Below, piece by piece: positions 234-11,352 of a stretch of 11,352 nucleotides of DNA (within the stretch, counting starts at the first letter, position 1; each line of letters begins with the position of its first letter). The stretch lies in IMG/VR virus record IMGVR_UViG_2585427742_000014. The stretch is one strand, 5' to 3'. The notes beneath the pieces are model-generated. The model saw only the letters and a list, made by a program, of their open reading frames with translations. It searched no databases and was not told the DNA's origin. The translations under genes and the position numbers were made by a program. This stretch comes from a virus. Taxonomy: Duplodnaviria; Heunggongvirae; Uroviricota; Caudoviricetes.

Positions 234-342
234 GTTCGGTGCACTGTATGAAACAACGTGGAACAAATAGACACAAGAAATATACAGGCGGGTCATCTTT
301 CCAGGGGGAAGCGCGCTAATTCATGAGGGGCGTTAATGTTGA

Positions 343-358: not shown

Positions 359-552
359 ACGGGGCTACCGGATTTTTTTTCCGGTTAACTGTTAATCAGG
401 CTGGTGGGCTTTACCTGTTTTGTAGGAGTGGTCATTATGACCATTCAGACAATGACCTTAATCAGAACTTTTCGCTAAAAAATGACGTTGGTCACGTCGT
501 CCGGAAAGCACAAAATCCCGTCAATTTTTAATTAACGGTTAAACCGTCTTTT

Positions 553-598
553 GTCACGGCGTGTCACTGGTTGTCACTCTCCGTCACGGTATGTCGCT
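553..598. repeat. Five helically phased direct repeats of TGTCAC-like hexamers at exact 10-bp spacing (553, 563, 573, 583, 593)
   Basis: TGTCAC, TGTCAC, TGTCAC, CGTCAC, TGTCGC read directly from the sequence at a 10-bp period; the pattern suggests a protein binding on one DNA face. Confidence 0.55.
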
Positions 599-603
599 AC
601 TCG

Positions 604-885
604 TTAACGCCGTAACCGCTCCGGCTTCTTCCAGTGGTACGTAATTTTCTCCGTTTCCCGATACAGTGCCACGCGGCGATTGTAGGCCAGCATTTCAAGA
701 ACGCGGATCCGTATGTTGCGCATATCCACATCATTAAGCTGGATACCATCACGGCGCATCACCTCAGCAACCACACGCGCGTAATTTTCGGCGGTCACGC
801 TGTCCGGCTGCGTGGCCTGTTCGTCATGCTGCTGGCTGATTCCGGTAACGCGGCGGATTAATCCCAGTAGTTCGGCTTCTGTCAT
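604..885 (-). CDS. Hypothetical protein (~93 aa); credible distal part of the 159-aa ORF 604..1083
   Basis: Internal ATG at 885 preceded by a G-rich stretch. The upstream part of the long ORF runs across the cos site and is low-complexity (FCACPVHGKH...), so the start was trimmed. No family recognised. Confidence 0.4.
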   Translation of the reverse strand: MTEAELLGLIRRVTGISQQHDEQATQPDSVTAENYARVVAEVMRRDGIQLNDVDMRNIRIRVLEMLAYNRRVALYRETEKITYHWKKPERLRR

Positions 886-920: not shown

Positions 921-1100
921 GGTCCTTCCTGGAATTATGGCCCGTTACGGGGCGGCGACCTCGCGCGTTTTCACTATTTATGAAAATTTTTCGGGATCCA
1001 TGTCCGGTTTCTCTGCAAGTTAACCATATGAAAAATATAAAAACATGCTTTCCATGAACCGGACATGCGCAAAAAACAGACACTAAAACCGGACATCGAA
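921..1100 (+). other. cos-1: lambda-type cohesive-end site in plus orientation (cosQ-like flank, cosN 950-961 GGGCGGCGACCT, cosB-like region with three R-like elements and an AT-rich spacer)
   Basis: CGTTACG|GGGCGGCGACCT|CGCGCGTTTTCACTATTTATGAAAATTTTTCGG matches the phage lambda cos junction as I recall it (GGTTACG|GGGCGGCGACCT|CGCGGGTTTTCGCTATTTATGAAAATTTTCCGG). Downstream: ATGTCCGGTT at 1000-1009, AT-rich 1011-1050, AACCGGACAT at 1057-1066 and 1087-1096. Confidence 0.75.
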
Positions 1101-1599: not shown

Positions 1600-1733
1600 A
1601 ATGTTACCTTAACTGCATGGTTAAATATTAATCAAGTGGTGGTGGTGTCACCTTCACGGAAAAACGTCATAAATAGCGAAAACCCGCGAGGTCGCCGCCC
1701 CGTAACGGGTCCATAATTCCAGGAAGGACCCGT
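1600..1733 (-). other. cos-2: lambda-type cos site in minus orientation (cosN at 1689-1700 as reverse complement), in the lambda-like position immediately upstream of the Nu1-like gene
   Basis: Minus strand reads ACGGGTCCTTCCTGGAATTATGGACCCGTTACG|GGGCGGCGACCT|CGCGGGTTTTCGCTATTTATGACGTTTTTCCGTGAAGG. The 22 nt after cosN are identical to lambda as recalled, and CGTTTTTCCGTG resembles lambda R3. Confidence 0.75.
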
Positions 1734-1755
1734 AAAAAAGCCGGATTTCTCCGGC
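1734..1755 (-). terminator. Rho-independent terminator for the capsid operon (GCCGGA-TTTC-TCCGGC stem-loop followed by T6 on the minus strand)
   Basis: Hairpin 1740-1755 and A6 at 1734-1739 (T6 on the minus strand), 7 nt past the stop of the 1762..2175 ORF. Confidence 0.6.
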
Positions 1756-2534: not shown

Positions 2535-3590
2535 TTAACCAATTTTGACGGTAACAAATTTGCGAATATCTGCCGGAACCGGCTGCGGTGCGCTGTGCGT
2601 CTGCACGTACTCAATCGCCGGATCGCCGTCCTCAATCCAGTTTTTCGGGTAAAACATGTTTTGCGTTGCGCCCGTTCTTACTGCGTCCTGATCCATAATC
2701 GCACCATAGGCCACCAGCCCTTTATTGTTGGTGTTGCCCAGAACCAGCAAATCAGGCTCAAGGAAATATTTTTCTGTGCCGTCGCTGTCAGTGTATTTGC
2801 CGGAATAGACGATAAGGGCAATATCGCCCAGATAGCCTTTAAAGCTCACCACTTCGCCCAGGTTTTTACAGGCCAGCTCTGCGGCGGACTCTGAACCACG
2901 GGAAAGATCGTACAGCTCACGGAATTTTTTAAAGCTGCGTAACGTTCGCCATACCTCAGCGCCCATAATCATGACGTTTGCGGGGCAACCAGCCTGATCA
3001 GCATAAAGCTCGATGTCATAGATTGGGTCGTGCATGTCTTTATCCTGCTCGGACCATTTTTTACCCTTGGCCTGCTCTATGATGCAGTTTTCCGGTATTT
3101 TCCAGTCGATTTCATAGCGTTCTATGCCTTCGCCCTCAATGATGTTTTTTCCGGTCGTTACCGCATTCACCGCCAGCCATTCCACGCGTGCCTTAATGGC
3201 GTTTATCTGGCGGCGCATGTTGCCAGTAATCAGGCGCATACGGCGATAGGTAGGGTCGTTAAGCTGTGCCGGATCTTCTCCAGCCATGCGCATGATGGTT
3301 TTCGTTGGATCGATTTCGTGCTTTGGCTTCATGTAGCCAGGTTTGATTGTGCTGGTTTCGTACCCTTTATCGCGCTGAACCTGGCTACCCACCATAGGCG
3401 AACAAAACGCCGACATGGTGACTTCTTCAATGTCCAGGGTATCCAGCATGATGTTTTGCGTGCTGAATGTCGCCACGTTCGGGAAAAACAGCGTGGTAAA
3501 CAGAGGGCTGAATTTAAAATCCGCAATATCCCCGCGATTCAGGTACATGAAAAGCTGGTTAGTGTTAAGTGCCGTTGCTTTGCCTGCCAT
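2535..3590 (-). CDS. Major capsid protein, lambda gpE family
   Basis: 351 aa; shared motifs with lambda gpE as recalled: DFKFSPLF / KFKFDPLF, PGYMKPKHEI / PGYVKPKHEV, DPTYRRMRLI / DPAYRRRRII, YPKNWIEDGDPAIEY / YPKNWVTTGDPAREF. GGGGG-type RBS 6 nt upstream. Confidence 0.9.
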   Translation of the reverse strand: MAGKATALNTNQLFMYLNRGDIADFKFSPLFTTLFFPNVATFSTQNIMLDTLDIEEVTMSAFCSPMVGSQVQRDKGYETSTIKPGYMKPKHEIDPTKTIMRMAGEDPAQLNDPTYRRMRLITGNMRRQINAIKARVEWLAVNAVTTGKNIIEGEGIERYEIDWKIPENCIIEQAKGKKWSEQDKDMHDPIYDIELYADQAGCPANVMIMGAEVWRTLRSFKKFRELYDLSRGSESAAELACKNLGEVVSFKGYLGDIALIVYSGKYTDSDGTEKYFLEPDLLVLGNTNNKGLVAYGAIMDQDAVRTGATQNMFYPKNWIEDGDPAIEYVQTHSAPQPVPADIRKFVTVKIG

Positions 3591-4909: not shown

Positions 4910-4957
4910 ATTTATTTTTACCCCCTCGTTTAAAAAGTTTTGAGTTGTGCCTCCCCT

Positions 4958-5185
4958 TGTCTACCTTATCTACCTTAGTGGCCCTCATGCCAGTAATGGC
5001 GCGGCTTTCAGCGGGGTAGAGTGCTTTTATCCACTATCTACCCCGTGTCTACCTCCCTGTCTGACTCAGGTAAAATCAGGTAGAGAGGGTAGATAGTGGG
5101 TAGACAGTAAAAAAAAGCTATCTACCTAACTTAATGCACTGAATTAAATGTATTTTTCTTTACTCAGGTAGACAGGGTAGACAGC
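4958..5185. repeat. Iteron array with AT-rich segment; putative island replication origin just downstream of the primase gene
   Basis: At least 9 copies of GGTAGA(C/T/G)AG or its complement in both orientations: TCTACCTTA x2 tandem at 4960-4977, CTATCTACC 5035-5043, GTGTCTACC 5045-5053, GGTAGAG 5079-5085, GGGTAGATAG 5088-5097, GGGTAGACAG 5098-5107, GCTATCTACC 5117-5126, GGTAGACAG x2 tandem at 5167-5184. AT-rich stretch at 5107-5160. Confidence 0.7.
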
Positions 5186-5197
5186 AATTACAAAAAA

Positions 5198-6952
5198 TTA
5201 TAAAAACGCGTCGCACTCGTCTGTTGTTATTGCGTTAGTCTGCGTTACTCCCTTAACTTTCCGCGTAATATATTCATGTCCGTAAACTTTCGCGGCTGGC
5301 TTCATAGCCTTGCCAAAGTCATTTACGTTTAGCGGTTTGCTCCTGCCTGCGTACGCCATAAACGCCAGATAGACGCGGTAAAGGCTGTTTCTGGTCGTGT
5401 ACTTCACTGAATCGCCACCGCCGCCCATCATCAGGCCGCGTGCTTCCTCCAGAAAATTCAGGAACTGGCAAAACTCAATAACCGGATCCGTCTGTTGCTT
5501 TATTGCCAGTGCTTCATCACCGTCACGCTGTTCCAGTAGTAAAGCCCGTGCTTTCTCAGAGTCGGTAAAGTTCGCCAGCAATCGGCGGATAATGACAGGG
5601 ATTTCAGCCGCAATCTTTTCCGGTAGCTCCCTGTCTTTTTCGGCCTCACTGACGATATTGTCGAAACGGAAAATCACGCGACGACGTGCCACACCTCCGG
5701 CCCGTTCGGTGAATATCATCGGGTTGTTGTTGGTCGCCAGCACCACCGCCCTGATTACCGCCGTAAAACGCTTTTCATATTTCGGGTTAATTTCCACGGG
5801 GTCACCGCCCGTGATTTTCTTGATGCCCGTTCCTTCGCCTGTATATTTCGGCTGGTCAGCCAGGACGATAAGACGACTCCCGACAACCTGCGCACGTCCA
5901 CCAGCATCATCAAGCGATGTCATTTCAGCGCTTACCGTGTTCTGTTTCCCTGCCAGAAGGCTGGCTATGTGCGTGAATGTACTTTTACCGCTCCCGCCGT
6001 CTCCGGTGGCCTCAATAAACATCTGCCAGTCGTACCGGTTCGCCATAATCATGTACAGCGCGGCACATATACGCATCATCTTGCGCGGGTCTTTTCCGGC
6101 TGCGTGCTTAAGCCATTTATGAAAGTTTGGCGCGTTATCGCGGATGTTCTCCCCTGGTGCTGGTGGCGTGTACTCAATGCCGTTGTTCGTGGTGATCCAG
6201 TTCTCCGGCGTGTGCGGGGAAAATTCCCCCGTTTTCAGGTCAAGCGCACCATTGGCGAACGGCAGCAAATCGCCGGACGGCTCGCCCATTGGTTCGGCAA
6301 TAACTTTTAACGCTTCCACGGCGTTATTGATTACGCGCTTGCTGAAAGTGGCCCTGTGCTCTGAATAGATCGCCACCATTTCGCGGCTAAGTTCCATTGT
6401 GCTGACCGGACACCATACCCCGCCGCGCCATACGTGAACGATTTCACTTTCAGGATGTACGCAAACGCCATCAAAGCGATCGGCAAGCAGCTGCGCGCGC
6501 TCACTGTCCGCCATCTGCGAAAGTTGCGCCTTTTGCTTTACCGGAAGCTCAATGACCAGACCATCAGAAAGATTCTGGCGCTCACGGGCCAGATATTCGC
6601 GCCAGTTCTCCACCTTCTGACCGTGCATACCATCAGGGTAAAAATTTGCGTCCTGAATATCTGCCGCCGCCAGCTTCTGACCAATCTTTTTGGTCTCCAC
6701 TAAATCCAGTTCTCCGGCCTGGTACAGCCTTACGCGCTTTTTCCCATCCGGAACAATTTTCAGCGCATCAAGTTCGGCAAGCTGATTTGGCCCAAGCCAC
6801 ACAGGCGGCACATTATCGCCGGATGCGGGGCCGTCCTGCTCCTGCCACTGTTTTGCATGTGACCACGCATCACTACCCGCGAAAATAATTACCTCTGTGT
6901 CTTTGTGTTTTATTCCGCGTGGTTGTTTTTTTACGTTCGGTGCCAGTTTCAT
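5198..6952 (-). CDS. Primase-helicase (D5_N-like region plus SF3-type P-loop NTPase; phage/plasmid primase, P4 family C-terminal type)
   Basis: 584 aa; Walker A GDGGSGKST, preceded by a D5_N-like segment (FANGALDLKTGEFSPHTPENWITTN). Followed by the iteron origin. Confidence 0.85.
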   Translation of the reverse strand: MKLAPNVKKQPRGIKHKDTEVIIFAGSDAWSHAKQWQEQDGPASGDNVPPVWLGPNQLAELDALKIVPDGKKRVRLYQAGELDLVETKKIGQKLAAADIQDANFYPDGMHGQKVENWREYLARERQNLSDGLVIELPVKQKAQLSQMADSERAQLLADRFDGVCVHPESEIVHVWRGGVWCPVSTMELSREMVAIYSEHRATFSKRVINNAVEALKVIAEPMGEPSGDLLPFANGALDLKTGEFSPHTPENWITTNNGIEYTPPAPGENIRDNAPNFHKWLKHAAGKDPRKMMRICAALYMIMANRYDWQMFIEATGDGGSGKSTFTHIASLLAGKQNTVSAEMTSLDDAGGRAQVVGSRLIVLADQPKYTGEGTGIKKITGGDPVEINPKYEKRFTAVIRAVVLATNNNPMIFTERAGGVARRRVIFRFDNIVSEAEKDRELPEKIAAEIPVIIRRLLANFTDSEKARALLLEQRDGDEALAIKQQTDPVIEFCQFLNFLEEARGLMMGGGGDSVKYTTRNSLYRVYLAFMAYAGRSKPLNVNDFGKAMKPAAKVYGHEYITRKVKGVTQTNAITTDECDAFL

Positions 6953-9580: not shown

Positions 9581-9850
9581 TTAATGAACTGCCTTGCAGC
9601 TATCCTTCCAGGCCAGAACCTCGGATAAAGACCAGCCAACGGAACGACCGCCAAGTTTACGACGTGATGGGAATTGTCCGGCCTTTTCCAGGCGGTAGCG
9701 ACACGTACGGCTAAGGCCGGTTAGTTTTTCGCATTCTTTTTCACGTATAAACCGATCAGTGCTTAACACTATTGCCCCCCTTTCGTTTCTTAAAGAGTCA
9801 TCAGGTGTCTTATTGTGTCGTATTGTTCCCGCTAGAGTGATGAATGGCAA
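9581..9850 (-). CDS. alpA: AlpA-family phage transcriptional regulator (MerR-like HTH)
   Basis: 89 aa; EKLTGLSRTCRYRLEKAGQFPSRRKLGGRSVGWSLSEVLAW matches the AlpA / CP4-57 regulatory protein signature as recalled; adjacent to the integrase. Confidence 0.85.
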   Translation of the reverse strand: MPFITLAGTIRHNKTPDDSLRNERGAIVLSTDRFIREKECEKLTGLSRTCRYRLEKAGQFPSRRKLGGRSVGWSLSEVLAWKDSCKAVH

Positions 9851-10134: not shown

Positions 10135-11352
10135 TTATTTTCTTCTGGCTACGGGTAGCGTGGTTACGTTTTCATGTGTTCCCGCCAGTATCCCTAACCG
10201 CTCCGTCCACATATCCAGCGCATTGCGTTTCGCATCCAGATAACGGGAATGATTATAAACTCGCTGCATTCCTGGCATCTGGTGGCCTGTAAGCTGCTCC
10301 ACGACATGCGGATCAACGCCTAAATCGTTCAGCATGGTTGTAAAGGTGCGCCGGATGTCATGCAGTGACCAGTGAGGGTGATTAAGCCTCCTGTGCGCTA
10401 ATCTTCCATACTGCGATACGCTGGCCTCCTGTTTCACTTCCCCCAGCAATAAGCCCGTGTGCCTGTTCTGCTCCACCAGCTGCGTGACGAACGGCAGGAT
10501 CGCTTCCGGTATGGGCCGGAATATTGCGACCTTCGTTTTGCTGTGCTCCTTCGGAACGGTCCATAGCATTTCCGTAAAATCCCACTCCCCGATCTCCGAT
10601 AACCTCAGTTCTACCGTTCTGGCTCCGAAGACAATCAGGAGGCGGATTAACGCGACGTAGTAAGGGGAGAATATTTTTTTGTCCAGTGCCTGCAATAATT
10701 CGCCAAGTTCTTTGTTACTTAAGACACGTTCGCTTATATCCGGTTTTTTCCCAACGTCCGCCACGTTCAGATCGTCCAGAACGTTGCTGATTGCATAGCG
10801 CCGCCTACGGCAGAACTTAAGCGCCTGTTTGCACGCCTGTAGCACGAATCCGGCAGTAACAGGCGTTCGCTTTGCCACCTGGTCAAAACAGGCCAGCCAG
10901 TGCCGTAGCTCGCATTTATCCAGCGGCATAGCACCAATCTGCTGTATTACGTGATTATTAAGTCGCCTTTTCAGGGCGATATAATCCACGCGGTTTTCCT
11001 TTACGTAATACTCAAGCCAGTAGGTGAGCGCATCGCCAACCGTTACGGGCTTTAACGCTTCCTGTACGGTGTAATTCATCTCATGACGTGGATTTTTCCC
11101 CTCAGCCAGCCATGTGCGACACTGTGCGGCTTTTTCCCTGGCTGCTTTCAGGCTCAGATCAGGATAACTTCCCAGCTTAATGCGTTCGGGTCGTGTCTCC
11201 CTTCCCGTTCCGGCCCTGTATGTGAAATACCAGGTCAATTTCCCTGATGTTAAATATTTCACGCTCAGGTTTCCGCCATCACTATAAAACGTGTTTTTCT
11301 CCGCTGGCTTACCATGAAGTTTCCTTAGCAAGGTATCGCTCAGTTTGTTCAT
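10135..11352 (-). CDS. int: Tyrosine site-specific integrase, P4 / CP4-57 type
   Basis: 405 aa; N-terminal arm-binding-like region (LSDTLLRKLHGKPAEKNTFYSDGGNLSVKY), catalytic-region motifs HDIRRT and RVYNHS. The start codon sits at the window edge. Confidence 0.9.
   Translation of the reverse strand: MNKLSDTLLRKLHGKPAEKNTFYSDGGNLSVKYLTSGKLTWYFTYRAGTGRETRPERIKLGSYPDLSLKAAREKAAQCRTWLAEGKNPRHEMNYTVQEALKPVTVGDALTYWLEYYVKENRVDYIALKRRLNNHVIQQIGAMPLDKCELRHWLACFDQVAKRTPVTAGFVLQACKQALKFCRRRRYAISNVLDDLNVADVGKKPDISERVLSNKELGELLQALDKKIFSPYYVALIRLLIVFGARTVELRLSEIGEWDFTEMLWTVPKEHSKTKVAIFRPIPEAILPFVTQLVEQNRHTGLLLGEVKQEASVSQYGRLAHRRLNHPHWSLHDIRRTFTTMLNDLGVDPHVVEQLTGHQMPGMQRVYNHSRYLDAKRNALDMWTERLGILAGTHENVTTLPVARRK

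Follow-up and report, generated by a model that had tools for sequence, protein, structure and literature searches.

Close to one end of a phage-inducible chromosomal island (PICI), we found five GTCAC-type repeats at an exact 10-bp spacing. They form a genuine cis element that is conserved and assorts independently. These repeats agree with those inside phage replication initiator genes in their 5-bp core, their 10-bp period, their copy number and their flank preference (T at −1 and G at +1). We tentatively read the array as a set of orphan origin iterons, possibly bound in trans by an O-like initiator of a phage, that may serve as a decoy, as an auxiliary origin, or as both. The whole stretch of DNA analysed, which is 11,352 nucleotides long and is called the window here, is a PICI inserted in tqsA.

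The array and its surroundings in the island

The first 1200 bases of the window are identical in E. coli 042, and homology to tqsA and the chromosome stops at base 137. All island genes lie on the minus strand (Table 1). The array itself lies on the plus strand only, with the core GTCAC at 553, 563, 573 and 583 and GTCGC at 593, and positions 552-598 read tGTCACggcg tGTCACtggt tGTCACtctc cGTCACggta tGTCGCt. An earlier reading of the sequence alone had reported five TGTCAC-type hexamers at exact 10-bp phasing, and both the sequence and the motif scan confirmed it: the hexamers are TGTCAC at 552, 562 and 572, CGTCAC at 582 and TGTCGC at 592, so that the base before the core is T in four of the five units. 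The fifth unit is degenerate in the window but is GTCAC in relatives. The whole 11.3-kb window holds 11 copies of GTCAC on the plus strand, 4 of them in the array, and in 2000 mononucleotide shuffles no more than 2 GTC[AG]C units ever followed one another at 10-bp spacing, compared with 5 in the window.

The placement given by the sequence-only reading, just downstream of the ORF at 604..885 and near the left end of the island, also held, as the gap to the stop codon is 5 bp and the island/chromosome junction is ~415 bp away. This ORF is the last gene of the operon, and the array sits between it and two terminator-like hairpins. Because it lies past the last stop codon and ahead of these putative terminators, the array would be part of the operon transcript, at its 3′ end. 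A search for an RNA element at the array gave a minus-strand fold with a z of −2.1 only and no Rfam match, and a promoter scan of the array region found none.

Other features of this end of the island were recorded as well. A 60-nt segment shows ~77% identity to sequence that lies in or beside R, the endolysin gene, in Stx-converting phages and their lambdoid relatives, and may be a remnant of the phage late region ahead of cos. An inverted lambda-type cosQ-cosN pair flanks the Rpp/Nu1-like gene; such a pair is present in 18 of the 21 lambda-cos islands of the set, and the pair in the window matches cos1 and cos2 of EcCICFT073 (PMC6092414).

TABLE 1 Coordinates of the array and of other features in the window
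Feature	Position	Strand	Basis or remark
GACTACACC, two copies	213 and 225 (213-233)		Near att junction
10-bp-phased triplet	252-276		AACAA at 252 and 262; CACAA at 272
Segment resembling phage endolysin (R) region	459-518		60 nt
Two terminator-like hairpins with T-runs	538->518, 498->484	−	For minus-strand transcripts; consensus scan only; putative
A/T-rich flank AATTTTTAATTAACGGTTAAACCGTCTTTT	523..552	.	Abuts array; least stable 30-mer in 300-800
GTCAC-type array (five 5-bp cores)	553..597	+	Exact 10-bp spacing; motif scan
Last operon gene, 93 aa	604-885	−	phrog_1561
cosQ-cosN pair, inverted	919-1000 and 1651-1740		Lambda-type
cosN (GGGCGGCGACCT)	950-961	+	Reverse complement copy at 1689-1700
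Rpp/Nu1-like HTH protein	1165-1599	−	Pfam/PHROGs
Canonical PICI origin, TRTCTACC iterons	4950-5190		Two opposed sets around an A-rich core, immediately 3′ of pri-rep; repeats TGTCTACC/TATCTACC at 4958, 4967, 5034 and 5046 (+) and at 5078-5106 and 5166-5183 (−)
D5-type primase-helicase (pri-rep)	5198-6952	−	Pfam/PHROGs
AlpA	9581-9850	−	Pfam/PHROGs
Integrase with arm-binding domain	10135-11352	−	Pfam/PHROGs
SSB gene		−	Pfam/PHROGs
Lambda E-like and D-like capsid genes		−	Pfam/PHROGs

Conservation and assortment among islands

The array belongs to a variable segment (~438-603) that is bounded by two blocks found in related elements too, one att-proximal (156-438) and the other the 93-aa gene. A full or partial match to window positions 439-602 was found in 449 E. 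coli genomes, and in 169 of these it covered at least 80% of the segment. Array-bearing islands were found at six chromosomal sites (tqsA, clpS, allC, phoQ, yejO and smrA), and they include lambda-cos/Rpp PICIs as well as capsid-forming PICIs that encode TerS and TerL themselves. A species-level genome scan added one locus only, in Shigella. The sequence-only reading had looked to conservation of the motif in related islands, and this was borne out at the six sites, but not among sister islands at the same sites: the array is absent from L002 and L009 at tqsA and from L003 and L004 at phoQ, all of which have the 93-aa gene, and at phoQ these two stand in contrast to L007, which has the array.

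The 31 array-bearing loci carry 12 distinct array sequences. Among these, the first four units are invariant at all 20 core positions but differ at ~12 of their 20 spacer positions, and one lineage lacks exactly one 10-bp unit with the phase kept. Two different left flanks accompany the array, both of which retain the proximal flank TTAAAyaCCGTCTTTT in relatives; in L009, the flank is retained and the divergence falls exactly at the first base of the would-be first core. Judged by its invariant cores, variable spacers and in-phase loss of a unit across the 12 distinct copies, the array has the character of a selected cassette for cooperative protein binding, which supports the cooperative binding that had been suggested from the phasing.

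For association with other island features, we used 41 informative islands, 17 array-positive and 24 array-negative, with proteins clustered at 35, 80 and 95% identity. No protein cluster tracked the array in these islands, the best being present in 8 to 11 of the 17 array-positive ones. The earlier remark that no gene in the window is an obvious partner can thus be extended to all 41 related islands. Nor did the array co-vary with the att site, the packaging system, the replication module or any island gene.

Sister islands contain other repeats in this neighborhood. Downstream of the 93-aa gene, L004 (1900-2335), L006 (2650-3065) and L002 (2180-2410) have 2 to 6 copies of a ~48-nt unit, consisting of a hairpin, whose stem varies with compensatory changes (e.g. 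CCTCAAATTGAGG, GCGCAATTTTGCGC, TTCGCCGCTGGCGAA), and then GAAAATATCAnCnnGTTACCGCGCC, which is conserved; in the last unit there is an overlap with the stop codon. Such a pattern suggests that these units may form a structured RNA or single-stranded DNA repeat. Three ACCCaAAnnnnGGGT-type palindromes at ~27-bp spacing, iteron-like in appearance, occupy the same intergenic slot in L002 (1995-2075) and also occur in L006 (2700-2770), and a blastn search found no phage match for them.

GTCAC repeats in phage initiator genes

An exact scan of viral contigs for the pattern GTCAC(N5)x4 returned at least 120 loci, with GC contents ranging from 34 to 73%. In 81 of these loci, the array lies within a same-strand ORF of at least 190 aa. 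There are 75 distinct array-holding ORFs, with a median of 9 GTCAC per ORF, and the spacings between the copies are 10 bp (n = 359) or 11 bp (n = 81). The ORFs belong to PHROGs of replication initiation proteins and of O-like, primosomal or replisome-organizer proteins; a DnaT domain was found in 5 of 25 of them, and the N-terminal domain of the class is not recognized by Pfam. Downstream of them come lambda-P-like or DnaB-type genes. T is the commonest base at −1 in both the island and the phage units (81% and 41%, respectively), and G at +1 occurs in 50% of the island units and 68% of the phage units. These gene contexts indicate that GTCAC at 10-bp phasing is a predicted iteron signature of a large initiator class.

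This initiator module is common. It was found in prophages of 2186 of the 5426 complete E. coli genomes (40%) and in isolated temperate coliphages such as Evi, Tritos and vB_EcoS-689R5, with relatives in phages of Aeromonas, Pseudomonas and Ralstonia. A few phased GTCAC loci lie beside integrase or terminase genes, two of them being phage loci beside an integrase gene. There is also a second recurrent context, so that the motif is not uniquely indicative of an initiator: on the high-GC viral contigs L014, L025, L046, L048, L082, L104, L108, L126 and L129, a perfect 10-bp tandem of TGTCACCGTT or TGTCACTGAA, with 4 to 7 copies and a T-run, lies exactly between the stop codon of terL and the start codon of the portal gene.

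After the phage GTCAC arrays comes an A/T- or purine-rich tract, an arrangement also seen in the lambda origin. The initiator gene of the E. coli phage locus L013 has two GTCAC clusters, the second of which consists of four GTCAC units directly followed by gacagataaagatacagataaag, the least stable stretch of the region. In the island, the least stable stretch (positions 523-552) likewise adjoins the repeats, with a ΔG z of 2.0, compared with 2.6 for L013 and 3.5 for the lambda origin. However, it lies on the other side relative to the polarity of the GTCAC units than in these two origins, so the array is not a faithful copy of a phage origin. An extra cluster of six GTCAC units is present in L013 at 3044-3100, within the region that codes for the N-terminal DNA-binding domain. 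Such a six-unit cluster lies ~290 bp upstream of the A/T-tract cluster in the E. coli phage initiator genes of the GTCAC class, and it has the 16-mer GTCACGGCGTGTCACT in common with the island array, which may be due to chance.

The ydaU gene of the K-12 Rac prophage has its C-terminal half and its A/T tract in common with the GTCAC initiators, but differs from them in both the N-domain (DUF1376) and the repeats (TGTTCAAACA). Since both differ, the DNA-binding domain and the repeats would appear to swap together, as expected of an initiator and its iterons. In K-12 ydaU (L213, 2990-3120), the TGTTCAAACA-type repeats are followed by aataaagatacagataaagat, and it is plausible that oriJ, the Rac origin, is located inside ydaU at these repeats.

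Candidate functions of the array and known systems

The island has no initiator of its own for these repeats, as no initiator homolog was found in the window or in 98 islands (tblastn and two N-domain profile HMMs, E ≤ 10). Because it lacks such a gene and has its own, different origin, a binder of the array would come in trans. We propose that the binder could be the initiator of an infecting or induced lambdoid phage of the GTCAC replication type, which would bind the four to five head-to-tail GTCAC sites cooperatively on one face of the helix. Upon excision, the island would amplify from its own origin and thereby present many copies of the array, and these might sequester or handcuff the phage initiator, resulting in interference with phage theta replication of the PER (phage-encoded resistance) or inc kind. 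Alternatively or additionally, the phage replisome might be recruited to the easily melted stretch at 523-552, which would boost the replication of the island. We favor interference as the primary effect, since the A/T stretch is on the wrong side of the repeats and the island has a complete replicon of its own. Titration by one chromosomal copy would be slight, and any effect would hence depend on the amplification of the island.

In a rough probe of co-occurrence with resident prophages of the GTCAC replication type, a second match was present in 9 of the 22 array genomes, showing no enrichment over the 40% baseline in a sample that is small, clonal and ambiguous. This result is neutral to the proposal, because the phage that is targeted or acts as helper does not have to be a resident one. 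We also considered whether, in sister islands, this slot is occupied by iterons of other phage types, but this idea was unsupported: no lambda- or Rac-type iterons were found there, and the L002 palindromes are without a phage match. In the literature searched, whose coverage is incomplete, we found no description of phage-type iterons borne by a satellite. The fuller proposal, that E. coli satellites have a natural, non-coding origin decoy that captures a common lambdoid initiator, throttles the phage and/or fires the island, and moves as a cassette among PICIs and capsid-forming PICIs, is one that we regard as doubtful.

To our knowledge, the satellite-phage conflicts described so far are all protein-mediated, through capsid remodeling, redirection of packaging by Rpp or Ppi, tail interference, or carried immune systems. 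If the decoy proposal is true, a conserved cis-acting DNA array directed at a phage initiator would add a new layer to this conflict, in the form of a protein-free device for interference or hijacking. It would also account for some of the variable non-coding sequence at the end of these islands, and it would be a natural counterpart of engineered PER decoy resistance. The 10-bp GTCAC iteron signature is useful for the prediction of phage origins whatever the island array does.

We also considered a function of the array in the replication, integration or packaging of the island itself. That it is the island's own origin or an auxiliary, crr-like site for Pri-Rep is suggested by the A/T-rich stretch it abuts and by P4, in which a distant cis-acting replication region repeats the iterons of the origin (mentioned in PMC6092414). 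We rejected this explanation, which now seems very improbable, because the real origin is at 4950-5190 and uses a different motif, TRTCTACC; a motif scan found no GTCAC cluster in that interval, and the array is common to islands with a D5-type primase, a RepA-type helicase, or neither within 10 kb. The origin in the window has the published PICI layout, in which two opposed iteron sets flank an A/T-rich core immediately 3′ of pri-rep (PMC6092414). The array has short iterons and the same type of island in common with this canonical origin, but differs from it in motif and in its single direction, lies 4.6 kb away, and sorts independently of the replication module. A packaging site (cosB, cosQ, a pac-like site, or a binding site of TerS or Rpp) is likewise highly unlikely. 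The array is ~350 bp upstream of cosN (950-961), it lies just past terL and the 93-aa gene in capsid-forming islands, and a GTCAC tandem separates terL from the portal gene in one group of high-GC phages. Its presence is nevertheless independent of the packaging type, as lambda cosN is found in 7 of the 17 array-positive and 14 of the 24 array-negative islands, and an own TerL in 8 of the 17 and 10 of the 24, respectively; in addition, published PICI cos elements lie within ~70 bp of cosN (PMC9026076). The packaging site was therefore rejected. There is somewhat more in favor of arm-type sites, for the island integrase or one of a lambda-family phage, or of sites for the excisionase AlpA. The integrase of the island has an arm-binding domain, the array is found at the end of the island far from int, which is where the Xis sites of lambda are, the lambda-family arm-type consensus C/AAGTCACTAT contains GTCAC, the fifth unit of the relatives is GTCACTAC, and the two phage loci noted above have a GTCAC array beside an integrase gene. 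Arrays of arm-type and excisionase (Xis, Cox) sites, such as lambda P′1-P′3, are similarly direct repeats at ~10-bp spacing that contain GTCAC at the int-distal end of the prophage, but they have 2 to 3 units compared with the 4 to 5 here, and the island array has a variable distance from the core and no co-variation with att. It occurs at six att sites and is missing from islands at two of them, its distance from the junction ranges from ~415 to 780 bp, and separate, site-specific repeats lie nearer to the junction, at 213-276. For these reasons, integrase arm or RDF sites were rejected as improbable, and the recombination enhancer suggested by the sequence-only reading also found no support, because the array is independent of the att site and better candidates exist at 213-276. 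The latter repeats are likely to be the integrase arm sites and the excisionase (AlpA) sites. Their junction equivalents in the islands at clpS are two copies of AACTACACC and three of CGAACA at 10 bp.

Another explanation is that the array serves to bind a protein of the island or of the host that has nothing to do with phage initiators (for example AlpA, the 93-aa protein, a nucleoid protein, or one of the response-regulator type) and that would organize the end of the island into a nucleoprotein structure, be it a roadblock at the end of transcription, an insulator, or a partition-like scaffold. We consider this rather unlikely. Phased direct repeats suit many winged-helix and RHH binders, the array lies in the transcribed 3′ end beside terminator-like hairpins, and the 93-aa gene always adjoins the array-holding region. 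However, universal island proteins fail to explain the presence or absence of the array, nearly identical copies of the 93-aa gene (85-96% identity) being found in array-less islands, and no variable island protein co-varies with it. The 93-aa neighbor was rejected as a binder: it has no Pfam match and no PDB sequence match, and its AF2 model, of three helices and low confidence (pLDDT 68), shows no recognizable DNA-binding fold and gave no fold match at E < 1. A partition function fared no better. Centromeres of the R1 parC/ParR type consist of phased direct repeats, and the array resembles them in its tandem direct repeats on one helical face and, as predicted, in cooperative binding. In contrast to R1, the island has no genes for a partition ATPase or adaptor, and it is integrated and spreads by packaging. 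As no partition genes (ParA/ParB, ParM/ParR or similar) were found among the ORFs of the window with Pfam and PHROGs, the array is not a centromere, and the partitioning-type site proposed earlier falls with it. Finally, the array might have no function at all and be a neutral leftover, either from a tandem duplication or from recombination with a phage origin. The intergenic segment is mosaic and repeat-rich, and many sister islands lack the array, both of which would fit a relic. Yet invariant cores with variable spacers across diverged copies, two left flanks, and the loss of a unit in phase all argue against it, leaving it little probability. A relic of a phage initiator gene, in particular, was rejected because the array has no flanking homology to such genes.

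What stood of the earlier proposal of a protein-binding array is, accordingly, its binding-site character, whereas its specific suggestions did not stand; the closest match to the array, which it did not mention, is to the origin iterons in phage O-like initiator genes. Among known systems, the lambda-type origins (the lambda origin in gene O, Rac ydaU-type genes and other O-like or replisome-organizer genes) have clusters of 4 to 6 short, cooperatively bound repeats in transcribed DNA with an easily melted A/T-rich stretch abutting them, a layout that the array resembles, except that its A/T-rich stretch is on the opposite side relative to the polarity of the repeats. In the lambda origin, the linker of gene O carries four iterons and then an A/T-rich tract. 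These origins differ from the array in that their iterons lie inside the initiator gene, while the array is neither in nor beside one and is located on a satellite with an unrelated replicon.

The reading of the array as orphan iterons has its nearest precedents in iterons that act apart from an origin. The incA locus of P1 and the incC locus of F are plasmid iteron control loci. Plasmid-borne lambda iterons block the theta replication of rep-lambda phages, for which the iterons are required but the A/T-rich part is not (PMC3349717), and an ectopic lambda origin arrests lambda (PMC4488673); inhibition by the lambda iterons also needed oop transcription (PMC3349717, PMC4488673). PER, as cited in PMC6356513, is an origin decoy described for phage Sfi21. 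In PER, the ectopic lambda origin, incA and incC, the iterons are detached from a functional initiator gene and titrate or handcuff the initiator. The island, too, has iteron-type repeats with no cognate initiator gene on the same element. While the PER and lambda-origin decoys are laboratory constructs or, as with the inc loci, the replicon's own copy control, the array would be a natural, conserved feature of a satellite that is putatively aimed at the initiator of another element.
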